A stretch of DNA of 64,000 nt from Schmidtea polychroa. Its lineage: Eukaryota. The stretch covers positions 187,612,001 to 187,676,000 of the forward strand of contig CM097885.1 in NCBI GenBank assembly GCA_044892525.1. The letters run 5' to 3'. The notes under the pieces are model-generated. The model saw only the letters and a list, made by a program, of their open reading frames with translations. It was not told where the DNA came from and ran no database searches. The position numbers were made by a program, and so were the translations under genes. Every line of letters starts with the position of its first letter. Position 1 is the stretch's first letter. This document shows positions 5,601 through 58,284 of the stretch, piece by piece.

Positions 5601-8600
5601 AAATATACTAAAAAACGCAAATTGTGCGTTTAGCCAATCATAATTAAGATGTCAGATTGCGCCATAAAAATTTCAATTTCAGTAATTTATTTATTGTTGA
5701 AAACCTTTACAAAAAATACCTTTTATTGTTAATTTGTTTATATCTATTTGTAAAAATATTACAATTTTAATCAATATTTATTTGCTTTGAATATATTTTA
5801 TTATTTCAGTAATTTAGATGATATTTTACTACACGAATACTATACTTTACAGTTTCTAAAACAAAGAAAATCAAAACAAATTAAAACTATTAAATTTAGA
5901 AATAATATTGAAAAAGAGATTTGAGATTTTGACCAAGAAGAATATGAAATTTAGGCATCCAAGCGATGAGACACAAAGAATGGGTGTATATTAAAGAAAA
6001 TATTATATTAAAATTGTTAAATTAATAAAAACATGACAGCAAAAAAGCACCTTAATACCTTTATTTTAAATTTTCATTATAAATGCGATCGAAACCCTTC
6101 AGAAAATCCTGACGAAATGTTAAAATCTAGATTTAAAATCAAAACCGAAAAAGCTTTTGGTGAAGGCCAAACAATTTTTCATAGGCGATTAATCAAACGC
6201 ACATTTTTTCATAGTCCCATTTTTGGCGGATATGAGAGTAGTTACTGTATATTGCTTTTATTTTGCACTGTATCATTGTTTCGTGTCGTTGTTATTCAAT
6301 ATCAACATTCAACCCTTTGCAGCTAACTTGTAAATTGAAGAGTTGAAATTATTTTAAAATAAAATTGAATGGAATTTAAATGAAATAAAGATGAGAAAAT
6401 TTGAAGGAATTCTTTAGTAGAAAACGGGTTTTAAAAATGCATTATTAGATATGAATAGTACAGAAATGCGAATTTGTAGAAAATCAATCAATGATTAGAT
6501 TTTTATTTGAAACTGGAAAACGAGTCGGAGAAAAAGTAGATGATTGGGATCAACATTATAATACTGATTTTGTTGGGAAATGCATGGAAGAGTATGAAAA
6601 GCACAAAGTTGTCTAAAACAGAAAATAGCAATTAACTAATTAAGTGAAACAAAATCCCATAGTTGAAACAAGCGAGAAATTAACAAATTATACTTAAATT
6701 GAGGGGCATAATCATGACAACATGATCAATGATATTTGGGAAGCTAAATGTGGAAAACCCAAATGACAATTAATTAACGTTTATTTGTTTCGATTATTAT
6801 TAAAATGAAGACGAGATTAGGCAAAAAAGAAATTTATAAAAGGAAATCAGATCAGTTAGTGGGAAGTTATATAATGATATATGGAAATAAATTATTACAA
6901 GCTGAATGTTATTGAACCTTTTACTCTATTCATTGGTTGTGATAATCAAATTGTATATTTTGACAGATTGTAATAAATTAATTAATTTACGTTGGGAATC
7001 TTATTATTTATATAAATTTAAAGAACACGAGGAGTCAGTGGCCATTGCTTGTAATACGTATTGTGATGTGCACCCGAAAACTTTCGATGCATGAGGTCAA
7101 AAATTATTTAATTTAATGAAAATAACATTAATCCTCAAAATATGTAATGAAATGACATTGAAATAACACAAGATATACTCAACGAGGATTCCCAATAAAA
7201 ATTATCGTGCATAAAATTTCAAACTAAAATGTTTGCATACATACAATGAGGTTGTGAAAAATAACGTAGGTATTTATAACTGGTTTTGCAAGTGCGAGTT
7301 AGTGTCCGTACATTAGTGCATTTAAACAAATTCAAAAATTTTTAATTAAATTATATATTGCCGTTTTTTATCATTTTTAAATGGTGATTTTTTTTATTCA
7401 ATATATTTTTAAAATTTTATAATTTATTTAATTTTTGTAATTTGAAATTCGCATTTTCTCCTTTTTAATTCTTTTGCATTATACTATTATGTCTTTTCTA
7501 ATTTATTTTAATTAATATACTTCCTAAAAGTTTTAAAATATTTAATTTACTTTATTTGTGATTCCTTCTTGTATTTCGTGACTTTTCATTCATTTTCGTT
7601 CCTTTTTGATAATTTAATTACTATTTTTTTTCTATTTTATTTTTATTCTCTGCCAAAATTTTATTTTTACCTTTATTTCTTGTTATTGCTTCTTTCAATT
7701 TTTTTTCTTGTTATTTCCTTTTTGTTATGTTTGTATTATTTTCTTGCTAAACTTGTTGGACATTTTATTATTTTAGTATTATTTTTATGTTATTATCTTC
7801 TCCAAATTGTATTGTTTACTTGGTGTTTACTCGACCTAGTACTATTTTCACAAAACCATCACAATTAGAATTTTATTTTATATAATGCCAGTTTTGTCTC
7901 AACACTATATTCTTGCAAGCAAAAATGAGGGTTATATATCCCCTCACGCTCAAGTTTGAATTGGTTTTTTATTCACTACTGAACCGAAATATTGTAATTT
8001 ATGTTGTTTATAGGTCTGGATAGATGCGGCAGCTCAGATATTTTTCTCCCTTGGACCAGGCTTTGGCGTTCTTTTAGCTCTTTCAAGTTATAGTAAATTT
8101 AGAAATAACTGCTACCAGTAAAGAAATGTTTAAATTGTAAATATAAAAATAAAAAATTATATCTAGAGACGCCTTAATAACAAGTGCCATCAACTGTATA
8201 ACAAGTTTCATTGCAGGATTTGTCGTATTTAGTGTACTTGGCCATATGTGTTGGAGGCTGAACAAGAAAATGGACGAAGTTGCCGATCAACGTATCAAAA
8301 TATTTTACAAATATTGTTATTTTTTTAATTTAGAGGCTGGACTCGTATTCATAGCATATCCTGAAGCAATTGCGTCTTTGACAGGATCTGTCGTTTGGTC
8401 GATATTATTTTTTATTATGTTAATTTCTCTAGGCCTTGACAGTACAGTGAGGAATTTTATTTTTTAATTATGAATGGAATTATGAACCCTTTCGTTGCAG
8501 ATGATTAAGTCATGATATCGAAGTCCCACTATCATACTGACAAATATATCTTTACATAAATAGTTTCGTTCCTATTAGTAAATTCATTTATTTTTTGAAA

Positions 8601-24042: not shown

Positions 24043-26199
24043 AAATATGTTAGTAAAAAATCTGTAAAATTTTATCATTTTTTTGTCATATTAGCGCATA
24101 TTGGCGCATTGAAAATAATTGATAACAGATAAACAACTGATCAAAATTATGTTTAATTCACATTTAAATACAATAAGAAATCATTTGTTTCACATAATTT
24201 TACAATTATAAAAATTACAAAAGTTGTACAAAATGTTACTAGTGCGCATGAATGATTTTTAATTGTGTAAAATAAAACTAATTAAAACATTTTCAAAGAA
24301 TTGTTGTGACGGTATTGTGAACATTTAATTTAGGGTCTCAAAATCTTATCATTTATTCCTCATAACAGACTCCTAAATTTGGCAGTAGACGATAGTGTCC
24401 AATCCAAACCACCCCCTTGGAAAATATCTAGGTCGACTCAGAATTTTATGTAGGTCACGAAAACAGGGTGTTTATAAATATATAATGCTTAGTTTCCATG
24501 GAAATGAGCTCCAAAGTCTCTAAATTAAAATGTAGGTGACGCCATAATATAATATAATATAATATAAAAACTTCTATATATTATAATAATCAGTCTTATA
24601 CACCAGTCTTATATTGTAGAATTAAAATCATGTATACTTCCGCACATGACGAGACAGTGATTAACATCAGCATGAAATGTCATATTATAACAGCTTTCAA
24701 ATATTATCAAACATAGATAACCCTATATTATAGAAATAAATTCAAATTCTTCAAAACATGGTGGGATAATGAACAAAAGCTTTAATAAAATATTTAGAAA
24801 TTTTTTTAAAAATATGTAGGTTAACTGAAAGTACTTTAATATGAATGTCACACCACTCTGTTATAGAAATAAATTTTGTATATAAAAAATAATTGAAAAA
24901 TCATTTTTAAAAAATCAATAAAAATACTTTTAATTATACTTTTGATTACACGACTTGATAAAATATCGCACGTATATGATATAAGATATTTACAATATAT
25001 TCCCAACTCAAAAAATTTAAAGTCTAATTTCTTGCTCTCAACTTTAATTTTTTAAATCAACATTTCAATACAAAACATGCGAATGTACATTTATTCAAAA
25101 TATAAAGATTAAAATCATCAGCACACCCGCCCACACACTTGCCGCCACTTCAAAGAGACTGGCACGAAAGTTTGTAAATTTTAACCCCAGTTCCACTAGG
25201 GTCTAGAGGTTTATTTTAAATATTATTAAAATTAATCTTTCTTTTATGTTTAACCAATAATACTATTTTATTAATAATACTTCTCAATAGCAATAATAAA
25301 AATATAACAACATTTCAACAATTATTTATAAATGTAGCAAACAACATTTATGATTGACCTGTTAAATGGTCTTCTTTCTAACAAAGAAACTAACGAGGTG
25401 ATAAATAATCTGCAATTACTTGCTAATTGCTCAGAAAAAATCGTTGAAGATAATCGTATCGATTACAACACTATTTTCAATTTAGAGACAAAATATACTA
25501 CGCTTCTTTATCACACAGGAAGTACGCTGGCTTTCGAAAGGTTTAATGTTGAAGAGAGTATTTAAAATTCGAGAATAAATAATTAAATTTCTTACAAAAC
25601 CAAATTCTGATTTAATACAAGCATTTGAGAAGAGAGAAAAAATTTACTAGGATTGTCCTATTTGTCTGGCATTTTTGAACACTTAAATGAATTGAATTTA
25701 TCCATACAAGGAACTTTTAGCAACATTATCATAGCAAACGAAAAAATATCTTTTAAAGAAAAGCATTTAAAGAAAAACAAAAAGTTTGAATAAGTCGAGT
25801 TGAAAACCATAATCTCAAAATTTTTCCTAGGGTTGATGAAATTATTTTGCAAGAAGACAAATTTATTATCTGTTCAAAAATTAAAAATCATTTGCAAATA
25901 TTAAGCAAATCATTTGATGGTTATTTTTCGACGGGAAAAATTGGTATGGATCAGAGATAGATACAAAATCCATTTCTTTTCAATATTAATGACATTGAGA
26001 ATGAAGATTTACTCAAAGATGATTTCATTGAACTTCAAAGTAGAGCATAGGAAGCTATGCTTTTTGAAAAGCAACTCTTGCAAATTTTTTGTGTACGCAA
26101 CTAGAATCATTCCCAAATCTTGCGAATATAGCATAGGAGGTACTTGTTCCATACGCCACTACCTACCTCTACAAAGCAGGATTTTCAGCTCTAGTAAAT

Positions 26200-27077
26200 T
26201 GGTAAATTATTAGTTTGTCGCGTCTGTGTGCGTTCTCTGTCTACATTTTTATTTGGGTTGTGTGCGCACACAGACGCGTCAAATTGTCAAATTATTAGTT
26301 TATCTCGCGTCTGTGTGCGCTTTTTACTTTGTTGATTTGAATTGTGTGCGCACACAGACGCGAGCAAGAGGTATGTCGCATTTTTATTAAGTTGTTTTTT
26401 GTAATTTTTTAATTTATAGAGTTCGAGGAATCTTTTGTTTGAACTGGTGATTTGTCTGGGTATTTTGAATTTACGGATTTGGATTTAGAATGGATTTTGA
26501 ATTCTAAGTTTTGTTGGGTTAAATGAATTGATTTGAACTCGATTGGAATTTTTTGTGTTCTGGGGTGAAATATGGAAGATAATGAATGTTTGATATGTCG
26601 TATTTCAATGAGCAATATGGCGAAGGTAATATTTGAAAATTGTAAACATGCGTTTTGTATCTGTGGCGCGAAGAGATGTCTTTTCAGCAATGAAAGTTGT
26701 CCATGTGATCGTGGCTCAACAAGATCGTTGCAAATGATTAATGGAAGTTTATCCAAACGATTGGAAATCAACGATTTAATTTCTGCAAATCATGAAATGA
26801 CAGAAGAGGAACTCCAAGAGATGTTTATGAAATTTCCCCAAAGCGATAAAAAGATAAACTTGTTAACTTATGGATATGATATTCTATTCAATCGAGCTCT
26901 TAAAAAGATCAACACAACTCCAATGTTTATTAGCCGAAGTGTTGAACAATTATCCAATCTTTCAAATTCAATCATGGCTCAATCTCAAGTTATTGGACAC
27001 GATAAATGGTTTTGTACAAATAAAGCTTGTGATATGAATTACAATGAAATTCTTCTGATGTGTCTTAGATTTAAACA
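26200..27077 (+). mobile_element. 878-bp TG...CA insertion with 5-bp TSD (solo-LTR-like or integrase-type cassette) carrying a RING ORF
   Basis: TAAAT at 26195-26199 and 27078-27082; element begins TG and ends CA; removing it plus one TSD restores the hAT codons CTA GTA AAT ATT AAA ACT. Confidence 0.82.
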
Positions 27078-27087
27078 TAAATATTAA
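26572..27087 (+). CDS. RING-finger-like protein (171 aa), intronless coding region, element-borne
   Basis: CLIC-x14-CKHAFCIC-x12-CPCDR resembles a C3HC4/CPxDR-type RING with shortened fifth-sixth ligand spacing; a second Cys pair occurs in WFCTNKAC. The stop codon lies in flanking hAT DNA. Confidence 0.7.
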   Translation: MEDNECLICRISMSNMAKVIFENCKHAFCICGAKRCLFSNESCPCDRGSTRSLQMINGSLSKRLEINDLISANHEMTEEELQEMFMKFPQSDKKINLLTYGYDILFNRALKKINTTPMFISRSVEQLSNLSNSIMAQSQVIGHDKWFCTNKACDMNYNEILLMCLRFKHKY

Positions 27088-27759
27088 AACTTAAAATAGA
27101 AATCGTTTAAATGCGATTGATGACATTTACATTGCGCTTTTAAAAATTGAGCCTTGCTTCCGAGAAATTATTAGAAAAAACAGCAAAAAAAATCACATTA
27201 AATTTTGTGTAGCTGTGTGTGTTACTTAAATATATTTTGAATTGTAAGTATTAAATATTAAATATAAATATTAAATAAATAAAGTATTAGAATTCATTTA
27301 AATTTTTGATATGGCGTATTATTTAAACCTGGGATCCTCCGACAAATTTAGGGGTGCTAAATCACTTTATAAAATTTAAAGGGGTGCGGGATTTGAAAAA
27401 GGTTAAGAACCCCTGATTTGCAGTAATATTATTGAGTCTATCATTTTTGGTGATTCTAGTATTCCTTTTTTGGAAATCAATATGGGTTGGAAAATATGAA
27501 CAGGATGAAGTTGTATAAATCACAATAGAAACTCCCATGTTTTTATTTTTTTCAACCGTATGTATAAACAATATAGAAATAAATATGTGCGATGATTTTG
27601 GTAAATTAATAGATTTGCGCAAAATTCAAAATTTTTTTGTGCTACATTTTCGTAAATTAGATGGCTAATTCATGTATCATTTCAATGTATAGCGGTACCC
27701 AAGCTGATGGTTAATTCCCATATTTTATTTGTAAACAATATGTATCCAGTTGGTTGCGG

Positions 27760-28605: not shown

Positions 28606-28769
28606 ATGAATGCGGTTGGCAATGTTAAAAAATTGTCATGGAGTAAGATTTTCGCCAGGATGTTATAAAACTATGACCGTGGGCAAAAATTTGATGAAGT
28701 CCTCTGATAAATTTATTTCATTTTTATTTATTGATCAGTTCTATTCAGGTCAATTTGAAATCACTTTTT

Positions 28770-29100
28770 AGGAAACGAGTTTGTTGGAATATATCTATTG
28801 GATAAAATACCATTTTTACCTAATATTCAAGCCATAATCGTCAATACTCATTCATCGCATCTTGGTGGTGAACATTGCATTGGAGTTTATGTAAAACCTG
28901 ACAGGAAACATGTATTTGATCCTATGGGTTCCAATTATCCTGCTTTATTGGTATCAAATTGTAAACAATGGGTACACCTCTTGTATATAATAAAACAAAT
29001 TTTTCAAAATCCAATGACTTAAGCATGTGGTCAATATTGTTTATTATGGTAATAATTAAATTTATTAAAAGGAAAACAATCGACAAATTGTTTAATTTTA
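28770..29100 (+). pseudogene. Adenain-type cysteine protease remnant (Polinton PRO)
   Basis: One frame reads FVGIYLLDKIP..IIVNTHSSHLGGEHCIGVY..FDPMG..FQNPMT*ACGQYCL, retaining the His, Asp, Gln and Cys positions; two in-frame stops. Confidence 0.82.
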
Positions 29101-32100
29101 GATTAGCACTTGCCTTATTTATTAGCATTTGTTGTATTAAATTCTAAAGTGTCTAACATCACCTTTCGCCTCAGCCCATGCATCATCATTCACCAAGTTT
29201 ATATTGCATACTTTCACTACATTTGAACCTTGTGTTCAGTCTTATATACATTCATAGACACCGCTGAGTGACTATGTTACCACATTAAAAAATAAGCCAT
29301 TCAATCATCCACCACTACAAGAACAATAACAGCGAAAATCATAATAAAATATTCGAAGTATTTTAATAAAGACAACAACATAATCACGTAATCAGTATGA
29401 ATCGGTAGCAGTGAGATTTTTTAGCTAGGGATAATGTTAAATACGATTTGGGCTTGAGCCTTAATTTAATCTGGAGACCCACAACAATTTCATGTCATCC
29501 AGACCGATCACCTCTCAATCGACATTCCGGGATAAGTCCATCTTCGAATCGATAGTTGGAATAATTCCCCATTCGTTCAAGGTAGCAGACCGCTTCGCAC
29601 TTTATCCAGTATTTTAGTCGAGAAATTGAGGTGTCGCTGGATGCAGATTCTCTGTGAGCTTCCGTTTTACCATCTTTGCAGGGGACTGAACTTTGTCGTT
29701 CATCGGATTGTAGGCTTTGAATTACTCACATGAATCGGGGGTGTCCCTTATTCGACAGCTTATTAAGTTGTAGTCTGTGGTGATCTTTATTGATATTATT
29801 TATTAAAAAACCAAAAACAGGTTATCCAGATTTTTTTTTTGTATAAAACCTACAAAAATATTTTCATTTGTAAATTAGATTTAAAGAAATTTGTATATAA
29901 ATTTAAAAAGATTTGTTTGAATATTGTATTATTATAAAATTTTGATTTTGATTCATTTGCTTGTTATTTGTCAGTTTATTAAAAATTAATTTTAAATTAT
30001 GGTTTCTAAACGATAAATTATTTTGGAATTATTGTTTGTGCTCTATATAATGCTGAACATCTTGATGTCACCAAGTCAAATTATTAATAGGATAATTAAA
30101 TTCCTTTCGTTTAAATTAATAAAATTTTGACCTAGACTTGTTTAAACTTTGATTTATTATCAAATCTTCTTTCTAACTCTTTTTGTTTGTTTTAATTAAT
30201 TAAGTAAATGGTCAAATGAGACGACCCACATAATACGTATAACGCACGAAGAATAATTAAAATTATTATGAAACACCAAATAAAACAAAAATAAGAAACA
30301 TAACAAAAGTAAAAATAAGTAAAACAAAATAATAAAATTAGAAAAAAGCAATACGTTTGCACATGAAACACATTGCTTAGGATACCTGAATAATAAATAA
30401 TATGAAAAATAAATAAAATTACCTGGGGGAAAGTCGTCATGACAAATGGGACGATCTGTGGGAACGCAGGGAAGAAAACGGAAGTAAAAAGAAGCAAGAA
30501 ATGAGAAATATAATCAAACAAAAGAAAGTAAACAAGAAATTAAAACAAAGGTCGTTATTAATTGACAAGTAAAAAAAGGGAAAGGGAATTTCAAATTCCA
30601 AAATCAAAACGGAGGAAAATTTATATCTTGACAGTTTGTCATAGAAATCGAATTCCTGGAAAAATCGGCCTAACAGAAAAAGGGAAAAGCCGACATATTT
30701 CGAAATATCTCGAAAAATGACACACAACAGCAAAAAATACTACCTTATCTATAAGAAAATGCACGAAGGAGAAAAATGGAAAAACAAAATTATCTAAAAT
30801 ACCACAAATGTTGCAAACTATAAAAGGGAAAGATACCGAGATCCGAGTTAGAAGTTAGAGTTAGTTAGAAAGGAGTTAGAAAAGAGTTAAAAAGGGAGTT
30901 AAAAGAAAAGTTAAAATGAGAATAAAGGAGTTCAGAATTAAGAAGATATATTTGGTTGAGAGGCTAACGAGAATCTTATTAAACCTAATATAAAGGTGGC
31001 AAAGAGTGAATAATTGTGGTTAAAGCAATAGAGCGATCGAGTAACGTATTCATGGGTATTAGAAGCTGCTAACACATCTTCTAAATTATTTTTAAATCCG
31101 GTTCAAAAGGTAACGTCATAATTTCAAGTATTTATTTTTAATGAAATATTGTATAATTTTCAAACAAATTTTCAGCGTTGAATAAAATATTTTCAAAACC
31201 ATTTATTAAAATTTCGATATTTAAAATATATTTATTTAAAAATTATTAACTAATAAAACTTCTTTTAAAAAGTTTGTTTAATTTTTCAATTTAAAAATTT
31301 CAATTTAAAAATTTCAATTTAAAAATTTCAATTTAAAAAATTCAATTTAAAAATTATTTTAAAAGTTAATTATTTATCATTTAAAATTATTTTAATAAAT
31401 CATTGAAATATTTAATTCTCAGATGAAAACATCTCACATTGTGATTAAATCGATCAACGATTAATGATTATTATTGTTATTGGCGAATTGCATACGTAGA
31501 CCTATTCTTCGCGTAGTGACGTAATATGTTCTGGATAGTTGTCTATATTAGAGTTTATTGACTGTAATTGCAACTTGTACAATATATTGTGATTATTAAT
31601 AAAGGTTATTTTGTTCGAATTGTAAATTTGTGAATTGATAAAGCACGGTTGGAGTCAGAGACGTAATTGTTAAATTTATAACTCATCACCGATCCAATAA
31701 ACCCAACAACATCATAGAAAGCATTAAAGCAAAAAGTAAATTGCCGAAAAATGACACACAACAGCAAAAAATACTACCTTATCTATAAGATAAGAATGGT
31801 ATGTAAAGGCGATCATTCGATCAATCAGGAATAAAAAGAAAAGAAAGAAATTAATATAAAAACAGTAAATTAAAACAAAATAAAGAAATGGACCAAGCAT
31901 AATAATTGGAATTTAAGATCAAAAATTAAAAATAAATCACGATCTAAATCACACATTATCGATCCTGATTGGTCGAATGTATTCACAGAGAAATTATATA
32001 AATGGCCATCTCGGTGGACACTACAACTTTCTACAAAAAGATTTTACTGAACCACTGTTTTATCAACCAAAAAACTACTCTTTGTTTTGTAATTCAAATT

Positions 32101-56394: not shown

Positions 56395-58284
56395 TCGTCC
56401 AATTGATTTCCGTTTGGGGGGGGGGCATAAGTCTTCTTATATAAATATTATTTTTAACTACAATTTTTTATATCTAAACAAATTATTTTTATTGGAGTTA
56501 TTATTCCTATTTAAATTAATTTCTATTGAAATTTTTCGTAAATATTAAAAACACTTTTCGACAGTCATTGGTATTTTCAAAAATGCAAAAACAATGTCTA
56601 AATATGATAAAAATTTATTTTTACACAAATTTTACACAAAATTTACACAAAAATAAACATAAATTATTATTTACTGTTTGTTTACTGGATTTTATATCAG
56701 TATTTGAGAAAATACCAAGAATCTCTCTCATTGGTTAAAATAGTTTCTCAATTAAAAAAATTTTATACCTAAAACCTTCCCAGGAGTGTACTCAACAACT
56801 TCTTAAAGTTTCTTGGCGATCGGATGAACAGTGTAGTAATGCATACAGGACNNNNNNNNNNNNNNNNNNNNNNNNNNNNNNNNNNNNNNNNNNNNNNNNN
56901 NNNNNNNNNNNNNNNNNNNNNNNNNNNNNNNNNNNNNNNNNNNNNNNNNNNNNNNNNNNNNNNNNNNNNNNNNNNNNNNNNNNNNNNNNNNNNNNNNNNN
57001 NNNNNNNNNNNNNNNNNNNNNNNNNNNNTATACCAATTAAAATATTGGAATTAAAAACTAGATTAAATTAAAAAGTATCTTTATTGAAACATTATATTAA
57101 AATTTAAAATAGTTAAGCCTTCTTAATTACGGAAATCGGATATTATATAATTGGGTAGAGGTGAGCTTTCTAACTCACTTCCAGTAATCTAGACTTTTTA
57201 GAGAAACTTTATAGTTTCATTTATAGAATTTGTTAGAACTTTTTGCGTATTAAAACATTTTAGATTGGTTAGGCTTGAGTAGTTAGTTAGTGGCCCTTGT
57301 TCGATACCCTCTCTCTCTGGTGCAACAAATGTCAATCTGAAGCTCGAGCTATGGACCACTATCGTCATGTGAAAAATGCACTATAGTAAGAGAGGTTTTT
57401 GAAGCTCAGACATTTTGTATTGGAAATTTTAGTGTCAAGCGTATTTAGTCATAGAATGTTTAATAACTAAACTATGGTTATATCAATTAAAAAAGTAAAC
57501 AAAGATATATTTTAAATTAAGATTATGTAATTTAAAAGCTAGATTAAATTAATGTTACGAAATAAATTGTCTCCTCTTACTGATGAATGTTTGGTTGGTA
57601 ATTTAATTAGGAAAAATTTTTAATGAGATGAGGTTTTGAATGTTTTTGTTTATGTTTGTAGTTTGTTTACTAATGTAACGCTGAGTGGTATTGATTTTTG
57701 TTTATTATTATGGAATAAAATATCATTGAACATTTTTTTTGGATGGAACAGTGTTGGGCTATTGAGTTGGTGATAAATTTAAATGTTAATTTGACTCAAA
57801 ACGTGTCTTTATACGATCCACAAATAACACTTGACAACAGAAATCTTTATTGATAATCACAAATAAACTTTCACTTTAAACTGACAATCAACTCAACACT
57901 CTGCACTCTATACAGTGCTTATTGCAACACTCGGTGAGGAATAGCACTTGCGTATAACACCGGATTAAAAGTTCACAAATTACTGATTGGTTTATCAACT
58001 GGGACTTTGAGCTGGTTTTCTTTGACATTCACAAATTTATAAGAATATTGTTGTTTTCCTTTTTACCTGATTTCGAAATTCCTTTTCCTTTTTGTACTAA
58101 TTAATTAGTACTGACCTTGGTTTTTCTTTTCTTGTTTAATTTCTTTTGCTTCCTTCCTCTTTCTCATTTCTCATTTCTTTTTACTTACGTTTTCTTTTCT
58201 AAGTTCCCATAGATCGTCCCGTTTGTCATGACTATCTTCCCCCAGGTAATTTTATTTATTTATACTATTTATCATTTAGGTATC

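Follow-up and report, generated by a model that had tools for sequence, protein, structure and literature searches.

The insertion and its target

What kind of element has split the decayed hAT transposon in this stretch of the Schmidtea polychroa genome (781 Mb, AT-rich, with four large contigs), and does the open frame inside it encode a protein in its own right? The window, by which we mean the whole stretch of 64,000 nucleotides that was analysed, contains an insert of 878 bp with TG at 26200 and CA at 27076–27077. The features that define it are as follows.

25491..26199, + strand: dead hAT, part 5' of the insertion; this extent is common to other hAT copies
26195..26199, + strand: left target-site duplication (TSD), sequence TAAAT, present as a single copy at the empty site of other hAT copies
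26200..27077, + strand: solo LTR (TG...CA), almost certainly of a BEL/Pao retrotransposon, RING-cargo type
27078..27082, + strand: right TSD, TAAAT
27078..27419, + strand: dead hAT, part 3' of the insertion
27085..27087, + strand: TAA that closes the ORF by accident, in flanking TSD/hAT sequence

The preliminary description of a TG...CA insert between TAAAT duplications in a dead hAT is borne out by these coordinates and by the empty site found in nine of 11 other hAT copies, where the flanks are joined directly and read ..ALVN-IKT.. (one empty-site copy has a match to the Pfam domain Dimer_Tnp_hAT, E 1.3e-8). Its further point, that removal of the insert restores the hAT frame, holds locally; elsewhere in the hAT, other stops and frameshifts persist.

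A young and abundant BEL/Pao family

The insert belongs to a BEL/Pao family that is young, multi-copy and abundant. A search of the genome with its DNA gave at least 55 matches (from 40 of 2,175 candidates), and a protein search gave at least 188 (from 150 of 1,535 candidates). Of the 32 copies examined that have no PBS behind them, 13 retain an LTR start that can be recognised, along with 5-bp TSDs that match, and 12 different 5-mers are represented (four more matches were set aside as doubtful); the TSD of the insert is therefore not a product of chance. Other copies that share the TG/CA ends and have differing 5-bp TSDs, as anticipated from the window alone, thus exist, and so do the anticipated LTR pairs around gag/pol.

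One RING-type LTR copy is followed directly by TGGTAGCAGAGC, a PBS that we take to match tRNA-Met. This copy is 99.4% identical to a second one lying 4.5 kb away, and between the two are the PBS, a ubiquitin domain (E 1.7e-18), a DUF1759 Gag (E 1e-12) and a protease-like region. The pattern of LTR end plus PBS occurs 184 times in the genome, 42 times with RING-type ends, and 14 of these 42 junctions lie within one tandem array. Head-to-tail arrays, in which RING-type LTR-interior units share LTRs, were observed at 21.645–21.705 Mb of contig C2 in assembly G000 (L113–L125) and at 134–147 kb of C54, with 14 units at ~4.6 kb.

Twenty relatives were retrieved via their protease, 18 of them chosen for long ORFs. 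A PBS follows CA immediately in all 20, LTR pairs at 98.5–100% identity are present in 17, and most of these 17 also have a polypurine tract before the 3' LTR and a 5-bp TSD, the length typical of BEL/Pao elements. The ORFs of two relatives were scanned for domains; each holds ubiquitin, DUF1759, RVT_1, Peptidase_A17 (E 5e-45) and DUF5641 in a single ORF, a combination that identifies the family as BEL/Pao. Young relatives are ~7.7 kb long and have single ORFs of ~2,200 aa, which start ~200 codons inside the 5' LTR and hold one or two ubiquitin domains. RING-type interiors are 92–94% identical to the domain-scanned relatives, and none of the RING-type elements inspected has an unbroken gag-pol.

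The LTR pairs, the PBS and the BEL/Pao domains leave hardly any doubt that the insert is the solo LTR of a BEL/Pao retrotransposon, which was one of the two readings first offered for it; such a solo LTR would have arisen by LTR-LTR recombination, an established mechanism. The other reading, in which a RING gene is spread by a non-autonomous cassette or as a viral segment, was wrong, since the RING-type LTR flanks gag-pol in pairs. A LINE-like element, which had been suggested by 5'-truncated matches, was dropped after the TSDs and LTR pairs were found. In locus L031, the truncated 5' LTR is immediately preceded (6977–7087) by an inverted fragment of the 5' end of the LTR.

One frame from the LTR into ubiquitin-Gag-Pol

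Within the insert, the ATG at 26572 lies just after an in-frame stop and opens a frame of 506 nt that continues up to the CA end.

26572..27077, + strand: LTR reading frame, ATG to LTR end, without internal stop; consisting very probably, for the most part, of the 5' end of a host gene of the RING family, now eroded
26590..26712, + strand: degenerate RING finger of the C-P-x-D-ending type, with Gly at one ligand position

The preliminary description had reported a 169-codon open RING-like frame. It is indeed open to the LTR end, but the TAA that closes it lies outside the element and its RING match reaches 17.6 bits against a Pfam cut-off of 27. In 5' LTRs the frame runs over the PBS into ubiquitin-Gag, with read-through across the LTR end of 657 codons (through Gag) and 338 codons (through ubiquitin) in RING-type elements. 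As the stop is outside the LTR, the LTR ORF is not a self-contained gene. We find it scarcely credible that a stand-alone RING ligase gene resides in the 3' or solo LTR in the manner of MMTV sag, or that the unit is a non-autonomous cassette mobilised by an integrase. The frame is open in many solo copies and the RING motif is recognisable; however, the LTR itself lacks a stop, so that in every solo copy the frame is closed by a different chance stop and the open frames differ in length between solo copies, the RING-type unit flanks gag-pol in pairs, and singleton changes are neutral, as detailed below.

How general is this read-through? At least 100 open codons before and at least 1,000 after the LTR end are found in 12 of the 20 relatives, a set chosen for long ORFs (one of the 12 has a foreign insertion upstream). 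Loci from the protein search (L036–L065) and those chosen for long ORFs (L135–L154) both favour open frames. A less biased set was found by DNA pattern and comprises 42 junctions, after 6 duplicates and 12 tandem copies had been removed from the 60 retrieved. In 21 of these 42, at least 100 codons upstream are open in the Gag-side frame, against one for the other five frames together; copies share ancestry, so that such counts are not counts of independent events. The spacer between LTR and PBS is 0 nt in 33 of the 42, 3 nt in eight (seven from one lineage) and 2 nt in one, and it is 0 or 3 nt in 97 of 100 junctions among those listed. Ubiquitin is in frame in 21 of 37 junctions (p 0.003), and the 16 out-of-frame cases are read as post-insertion decay.

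An alternative that we regard as very improbable is that the piece held in the LTR (its cargo) is never translated, being a passive passenger that lies in U3 or is untranslated, with Gag-Pol made from an internal Met and the open frame a relic of capture. An in-frame Met is present 18 codons past the LTR end, so that the LTR AUG is not required; moreover, two young elements are without an upstream in-frame Met, and a fragment captured from coding sequence starts out with its own frame open. What passive carriage leaves unexplained is the 0- or 3-nt spacer, the presence of at least six different host pieces in one frame with Gag, and the finding, described below, that eight of eight shared indels keep the frame against an unbiased non-coding control. 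We consider it probable that the cargo is translated from the LTR. At locus L083 (1501–2475), the leader between PBS and ubiquitin has taken up a host-like DEAD-box helicase piece (E 1.5e-6), likewise in frame.

Origin and decay of the RING piece

The RING of the window falls short of Pfam's RING families, with a score below the cut-off and an incomplete set of zinc ligands, one position being Gly in its subfamily. The best-preserved LTR copies score 22.9, and two host relatives score 42.7 and 36.5. Of 44 copies, 21 have lost the RING core (48 nt) by deletion; the core is retained in 23, of which 11, the window copy among them, have a changed ligand position, so that one or the other defect affects 32 of the 44. 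The proposal that the LTR encodes a ubiquitin-ligase-like protein is not supported, given this loss of the core, the absence of an own stop, the continuation into ubiquitin-Gag and the replacement of the RING piece in sister LTRs.

In public protein sets no relative of the LTR ORF was found with queries of 94–300 aa or with a profile of 12 copies. Within the genome, the RING cargo matches a large and divergent family of single-exon ORFs, mostly of 410–550 codons, with an N-terminal RING (L263–L352, many at 109–125 Mb of contig C2 in G000). The C-P-x-D ending is present in 88 of 90 motif matches, the two members scanned have only RING families above the Pfam cut-off, and LTR context was found around none of 30 ORFs tested. 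The closest members share 73–80% DNA identity with the cargo and are collinear over the first 100–170 codons, and the longest LTR variant matches the family at E 1e-19; the exact parent is not among the 90 host-family loci. We infer that this family is very probably the source of the RING cargo. An 87-nt segment of host members is retained in the longest variant and absent from the window type, which indicates that the cargo has been shrinking by in-frame deletion.

Several other candidates for the LTR ORF were set aside. A Helitron Rep fragment was rejected since Helitron_like_N scored 17.5 bits against a cut-off of 28.9, TSDs are present and what the region does align to is the host RING family. 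A match to NV_polyhedrin was below the cut-off. Generic viral RING clusters in the ESM Atlas (0.91–0.93, fewer than 170 shared features) were a lead only, superseded by the host family, and an AlphaFold model of the ORF had a pLDDT of 33 and was not used. A tandem array at ~232.97–233.27 Mb of contig C1 in G000 (L241, L252–L262) has a period of 916 bp and a 226-codon RING frame per unit, with more than 100 units among those listed.

The frame is kept while the RING is lost

Comparison of copies separates constraint on the frame from constraint on the protein. In the RING cargo, all eight shared indels are multiples of 3, against 12 of 28 singletons (p 0.005), and the non-coding stretch upstream of the ATG has no indel phase bias (13/12/10). 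Shared substitutions have a pN/pS of 0.60 (31/13), with no stops against 2.2 expected, and singletons have a pN/pS of 0.97 (107/28), with 7 stops against 7.5 expected. The shared value does not differ from that of singletons (p 0.30), is not clearly below 1 (p 0.09) and exceeds that of Gag (0.08–0.17; p 0.0015); ubiquitin stands at 0.30 (shared) and the leader at 1.09. Weak protein-level constraint on the RING cargo may exist, but as judged from these substitutions and indels it is the reading frame that is protected and not the RING ligase.

Swappable host cargo in sister LTRs

The RING is only one of several pieces found in this position. Among 60 LTRs, the last 450 nt fall into 19 clusters, eight with at least two members. 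A six-frame Pfam scan covered 12 LTR windows and 146 of 170 ORFs (two loci were left out for size), and 8 of the 12 LTR-end frames have matches to host families, namely proteasome, EAP30, TCP-1, Ras, dual-specificity phosphatase and a second, sub-threshold RING. The remaining 134 ORFs gave two matches only, both artefacts on the reverse strand of a tandem repeat. The RING, phosphatase, EAP30 and proteasome pieces each have more than 100 matches.

Some of these pieces can be traced to their source. A host gene with a single exon matches the EAP30 cargo at 96–99% identity over ~300 bp, the cargo being in sense orientation and in the host frame, and the TCP-1 cargo is 98.9% identical to a host gene over 443 bp, with 6 nt at its junction shared with the adjoining Ras piece. 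Neither of the two traced pieces spans an intron. A multi-exon chaperonin gene, examined for intron loss, is not the TCP-1 donor, and the donor of the proteasome cargo was not among 14 loci examined.

Gag DNA is 99.2–99.9% identical between elements with four different cargos, and LTR content is thus exchanged faster than the interior diverges. In three solo LTRs (L197, L198 and L200) the start and end are of RING type with a proteasome piece between them, an arrangement that is evidence of nested replacement of cargo.

Might the cargos (a RING ligase fragment and pieces of proteasome, ESCRT-II, chaperonin and phosphatase) instead be functional accessory proteins, released at ubiquitin and used by the element to disarm the protein quality control of the host, either as decoys or as dominant negatives? 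The identified pieces lean to ubiquitin-proteasome and trafficking genes, several types exceed 100 copies, and shared pN/pS is below 1 for both the RING and EAP30 cargos (the latter 0.23, on 9 changes only). We nevertheless consider this improbable. The RING is lost or altered in most copies and its shared pN/pS is no different from that of singletons; each cargo covers part of a domain from a subunit of a complex and is exchanged freely between backbones that are 99% identical; and abundant housekeeping mRNAs would presumably be captured most often anyway.

Our main reading, to which we assign a probability of roughly 0.78, is that the LTRs of these BEL/Pao elements hold exchangeable host fragments in frame with ubiquitin-Gag-Pol. 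The RING piece would likely form a dispensable N-terminal extension whose translation starts in the 5' LTR; it was probably captured by template switching and is possibly cut off at ubiquitin. The LTR-borne ORF is thus as unusual as the preliminary description held it to be, but for a different reason, which is swappable in-frame host cargo and not a ligase gene.

Candidate cis-elements and a proposed mechanism

Two further features of the LTR may bear on how such cargo is expressed.

26218..26364, + strand: two tandem hairpins, arms 26218–26232/26264–26278 and 26304–26320/26348–26364, z −6.8
27019..27024, + strand: AATAAA, candidate polyadenylation signal

The hairpin arm motif is present in 45 of 60 loci and is common to LTRs of different cargo types, which makes the twin hairpins near the LTR start a probable cis-element; in Rfam no family reached its gathering score, and the matches, of hairpin type only, were far below theirs. 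In 48 of 60 loci an AATAAA falls within 90 nt of the LTR end, and a transcript of the 3' LTR that ended after it would be without a stop codon.

We propose that transcription starts upstream of the cargo and that polyadenylation occurs after AATAAA near the LTR end, which would give a short U5 and a long R region holding the cargo. Reverse transcriptase would switch onto a co-packaged host mRNA while the ends are copied, leaving sense cargo in both LTRs. A scanning ribosome would meet the cargo AUG first and start there, so that only in-frame, stop-free cargos would keep Gag-Pol made; the in-frame Met beyond the LTR could serve as a fallback start.

Release of Gag at ubiquitin, by a host deubiquitinase or by the protease of the element, would render the content of the N-terminal extension nearly irrelevant. 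Gly-Gly is kept in 40 of 48 ubiquitin motif matches, and the ubiquitin insert of pestiviruses is a host cleavage site. The canonical C-terminal end of ubiquitin is LRLRGG, and the ubiquitin adjoining Gag ends in LRLCGG or LGLAGG; with these non-canonical ends deubiquitinase cleavage may be weaker. We put the odds of cleavage at about even. Evenly poised, too, is a broader proposal, in which an animal LTR retrotransposon would use its own LTR as a gene-capture cassette. Pieces of host mRNA would be swapped repeatedly into the R region, where they would supply the start codon of Gag-Pol, and a captured ubiquitin, cleaved by enzymes of the host, would keep them apart from the capsid protein; the 5' end could then change freely, and thousands of solo LTRs, each a promoter plus host exon, would be scattered through the genome.

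Relation to known systems

Coding frames that overlap an LTR have precedents. The Gag frame of Ty1 has its start in the 5' LTR, which leaves the PBS inside coding sequence, the overlap being short and Ty1's own sequence, and in MMTV the ORF in the LTR, sag, is a complete separate gene. Both resemble the present family in the overlap, but neither is swappable host cargo.

BEL/Pao 'Flow' families are present in Schmidtea mediterranea (de la Chaux and Wagner 2011, PMC3118150). The elements described here resemble other BEL/Pao elements in their TG...CA LTRs, 5-bp TSD, DUF1759 Gag, Peptidase_A17, RT and DUF5641 in one long ORF. They differ in that this ORF has its beginning ~200 codons within the 5' LTR, reads over the PBS and includes ubiquitin, a word absent from the main text of that paper, and in that the LTRs hold host pieces.

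In LTR-mediated retroposition as outlined by Tan et al. (2016, PMC5131818), capture occurs by template switching and the retrocopy replaces part of the internal ORFs. The nearest plant cases are Bs1 of maize, described both there and in PMC13317346, and BARE-2 of barley, described in PMC13317346. Like LTR-mediated retroposition and Bs1, the present family has partial host coding pieces in sense orientation, sometimes as mosaics, and the junction microsimilarity noted by Tan et al. has a counterpart in our single 6-nt case. Unlike in LTR-mediated retroposition, the cargo here lies inside the LTR, at both ends, and is repeatedly exchanged, with gag-pol whole and in frame. BARE-2 likewise took foreign sequence into its LTR by template switching, which is our proposal here too; its donor, by the same account, was the retrotransposon Wis-2 and the effect a new promoter, and not in-frame host coding sequence.

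Two further systems are analogies. Cytopathic pestiviruses, as treated in PMC13517609, also have captured cellular ubiquitin, in one or two copies, within a polyprotein and with mosaic cellular inserts; those are RNA viruses with dead-end variants, whereas here ubiquitin is a stable feature of a successful retrotransposon and its cleavage is putative. The planarian giant Gypsy elements Burro similarly have LTR-retrotransposon polyproteins with extra RING and ubiquitin-pathway domains, which the description in PMC6431247 places internally in elements of ~30 kb; ours are BEL/Pao elements of ~7.7 kb with variable LTR cargo. No description of in-frame swappable LTR cargo was found in the literature covered (Repbase and most subscription journals were outside its scope), and a term look-up in PMC8532177 and PMC9289625 gave nothing relevant. 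Polyubiquitins dominate among the 120 matches listed in a ubiquitin-Gag search of public proteins, a result with no bearing on relatives elsewhere.

That the window copy itself is an ordinary solo LTR, and that it is the architecture of its family that is unusual, is well supported at sequence level. In known LTR-mediated capture, host pieces sit in the interior in place of genes; here they sit in the LTR of whole gag-pol elements, and each captured piece therefore multiplies along with the family and persists in all of its solo LTRs. LTR capture of this kind contributes on a large scale to exon shuffling, and in annotation to spurious paralogues of host genes. It also provides a natural setting in which to ask how a protein N-terminus is released from constraint by a ubiquitin spacer and a start codon further upstream. 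That host-like LTRs might blunt piRNA silencing, or turn silencing against host genes, is speculation, now testable.

Other features of the window

At 28759–29022 of the window, a broken frame has a weak adenovirus-type protease match (Peptidase_C5, E 0.021, below the cut-off) and is possibly a decayed Polinton. Inverted copies of another dispersed repeat, 84% alike, lie at 30392–30508 and 58160–58276, and the same repeat is also present in L031.
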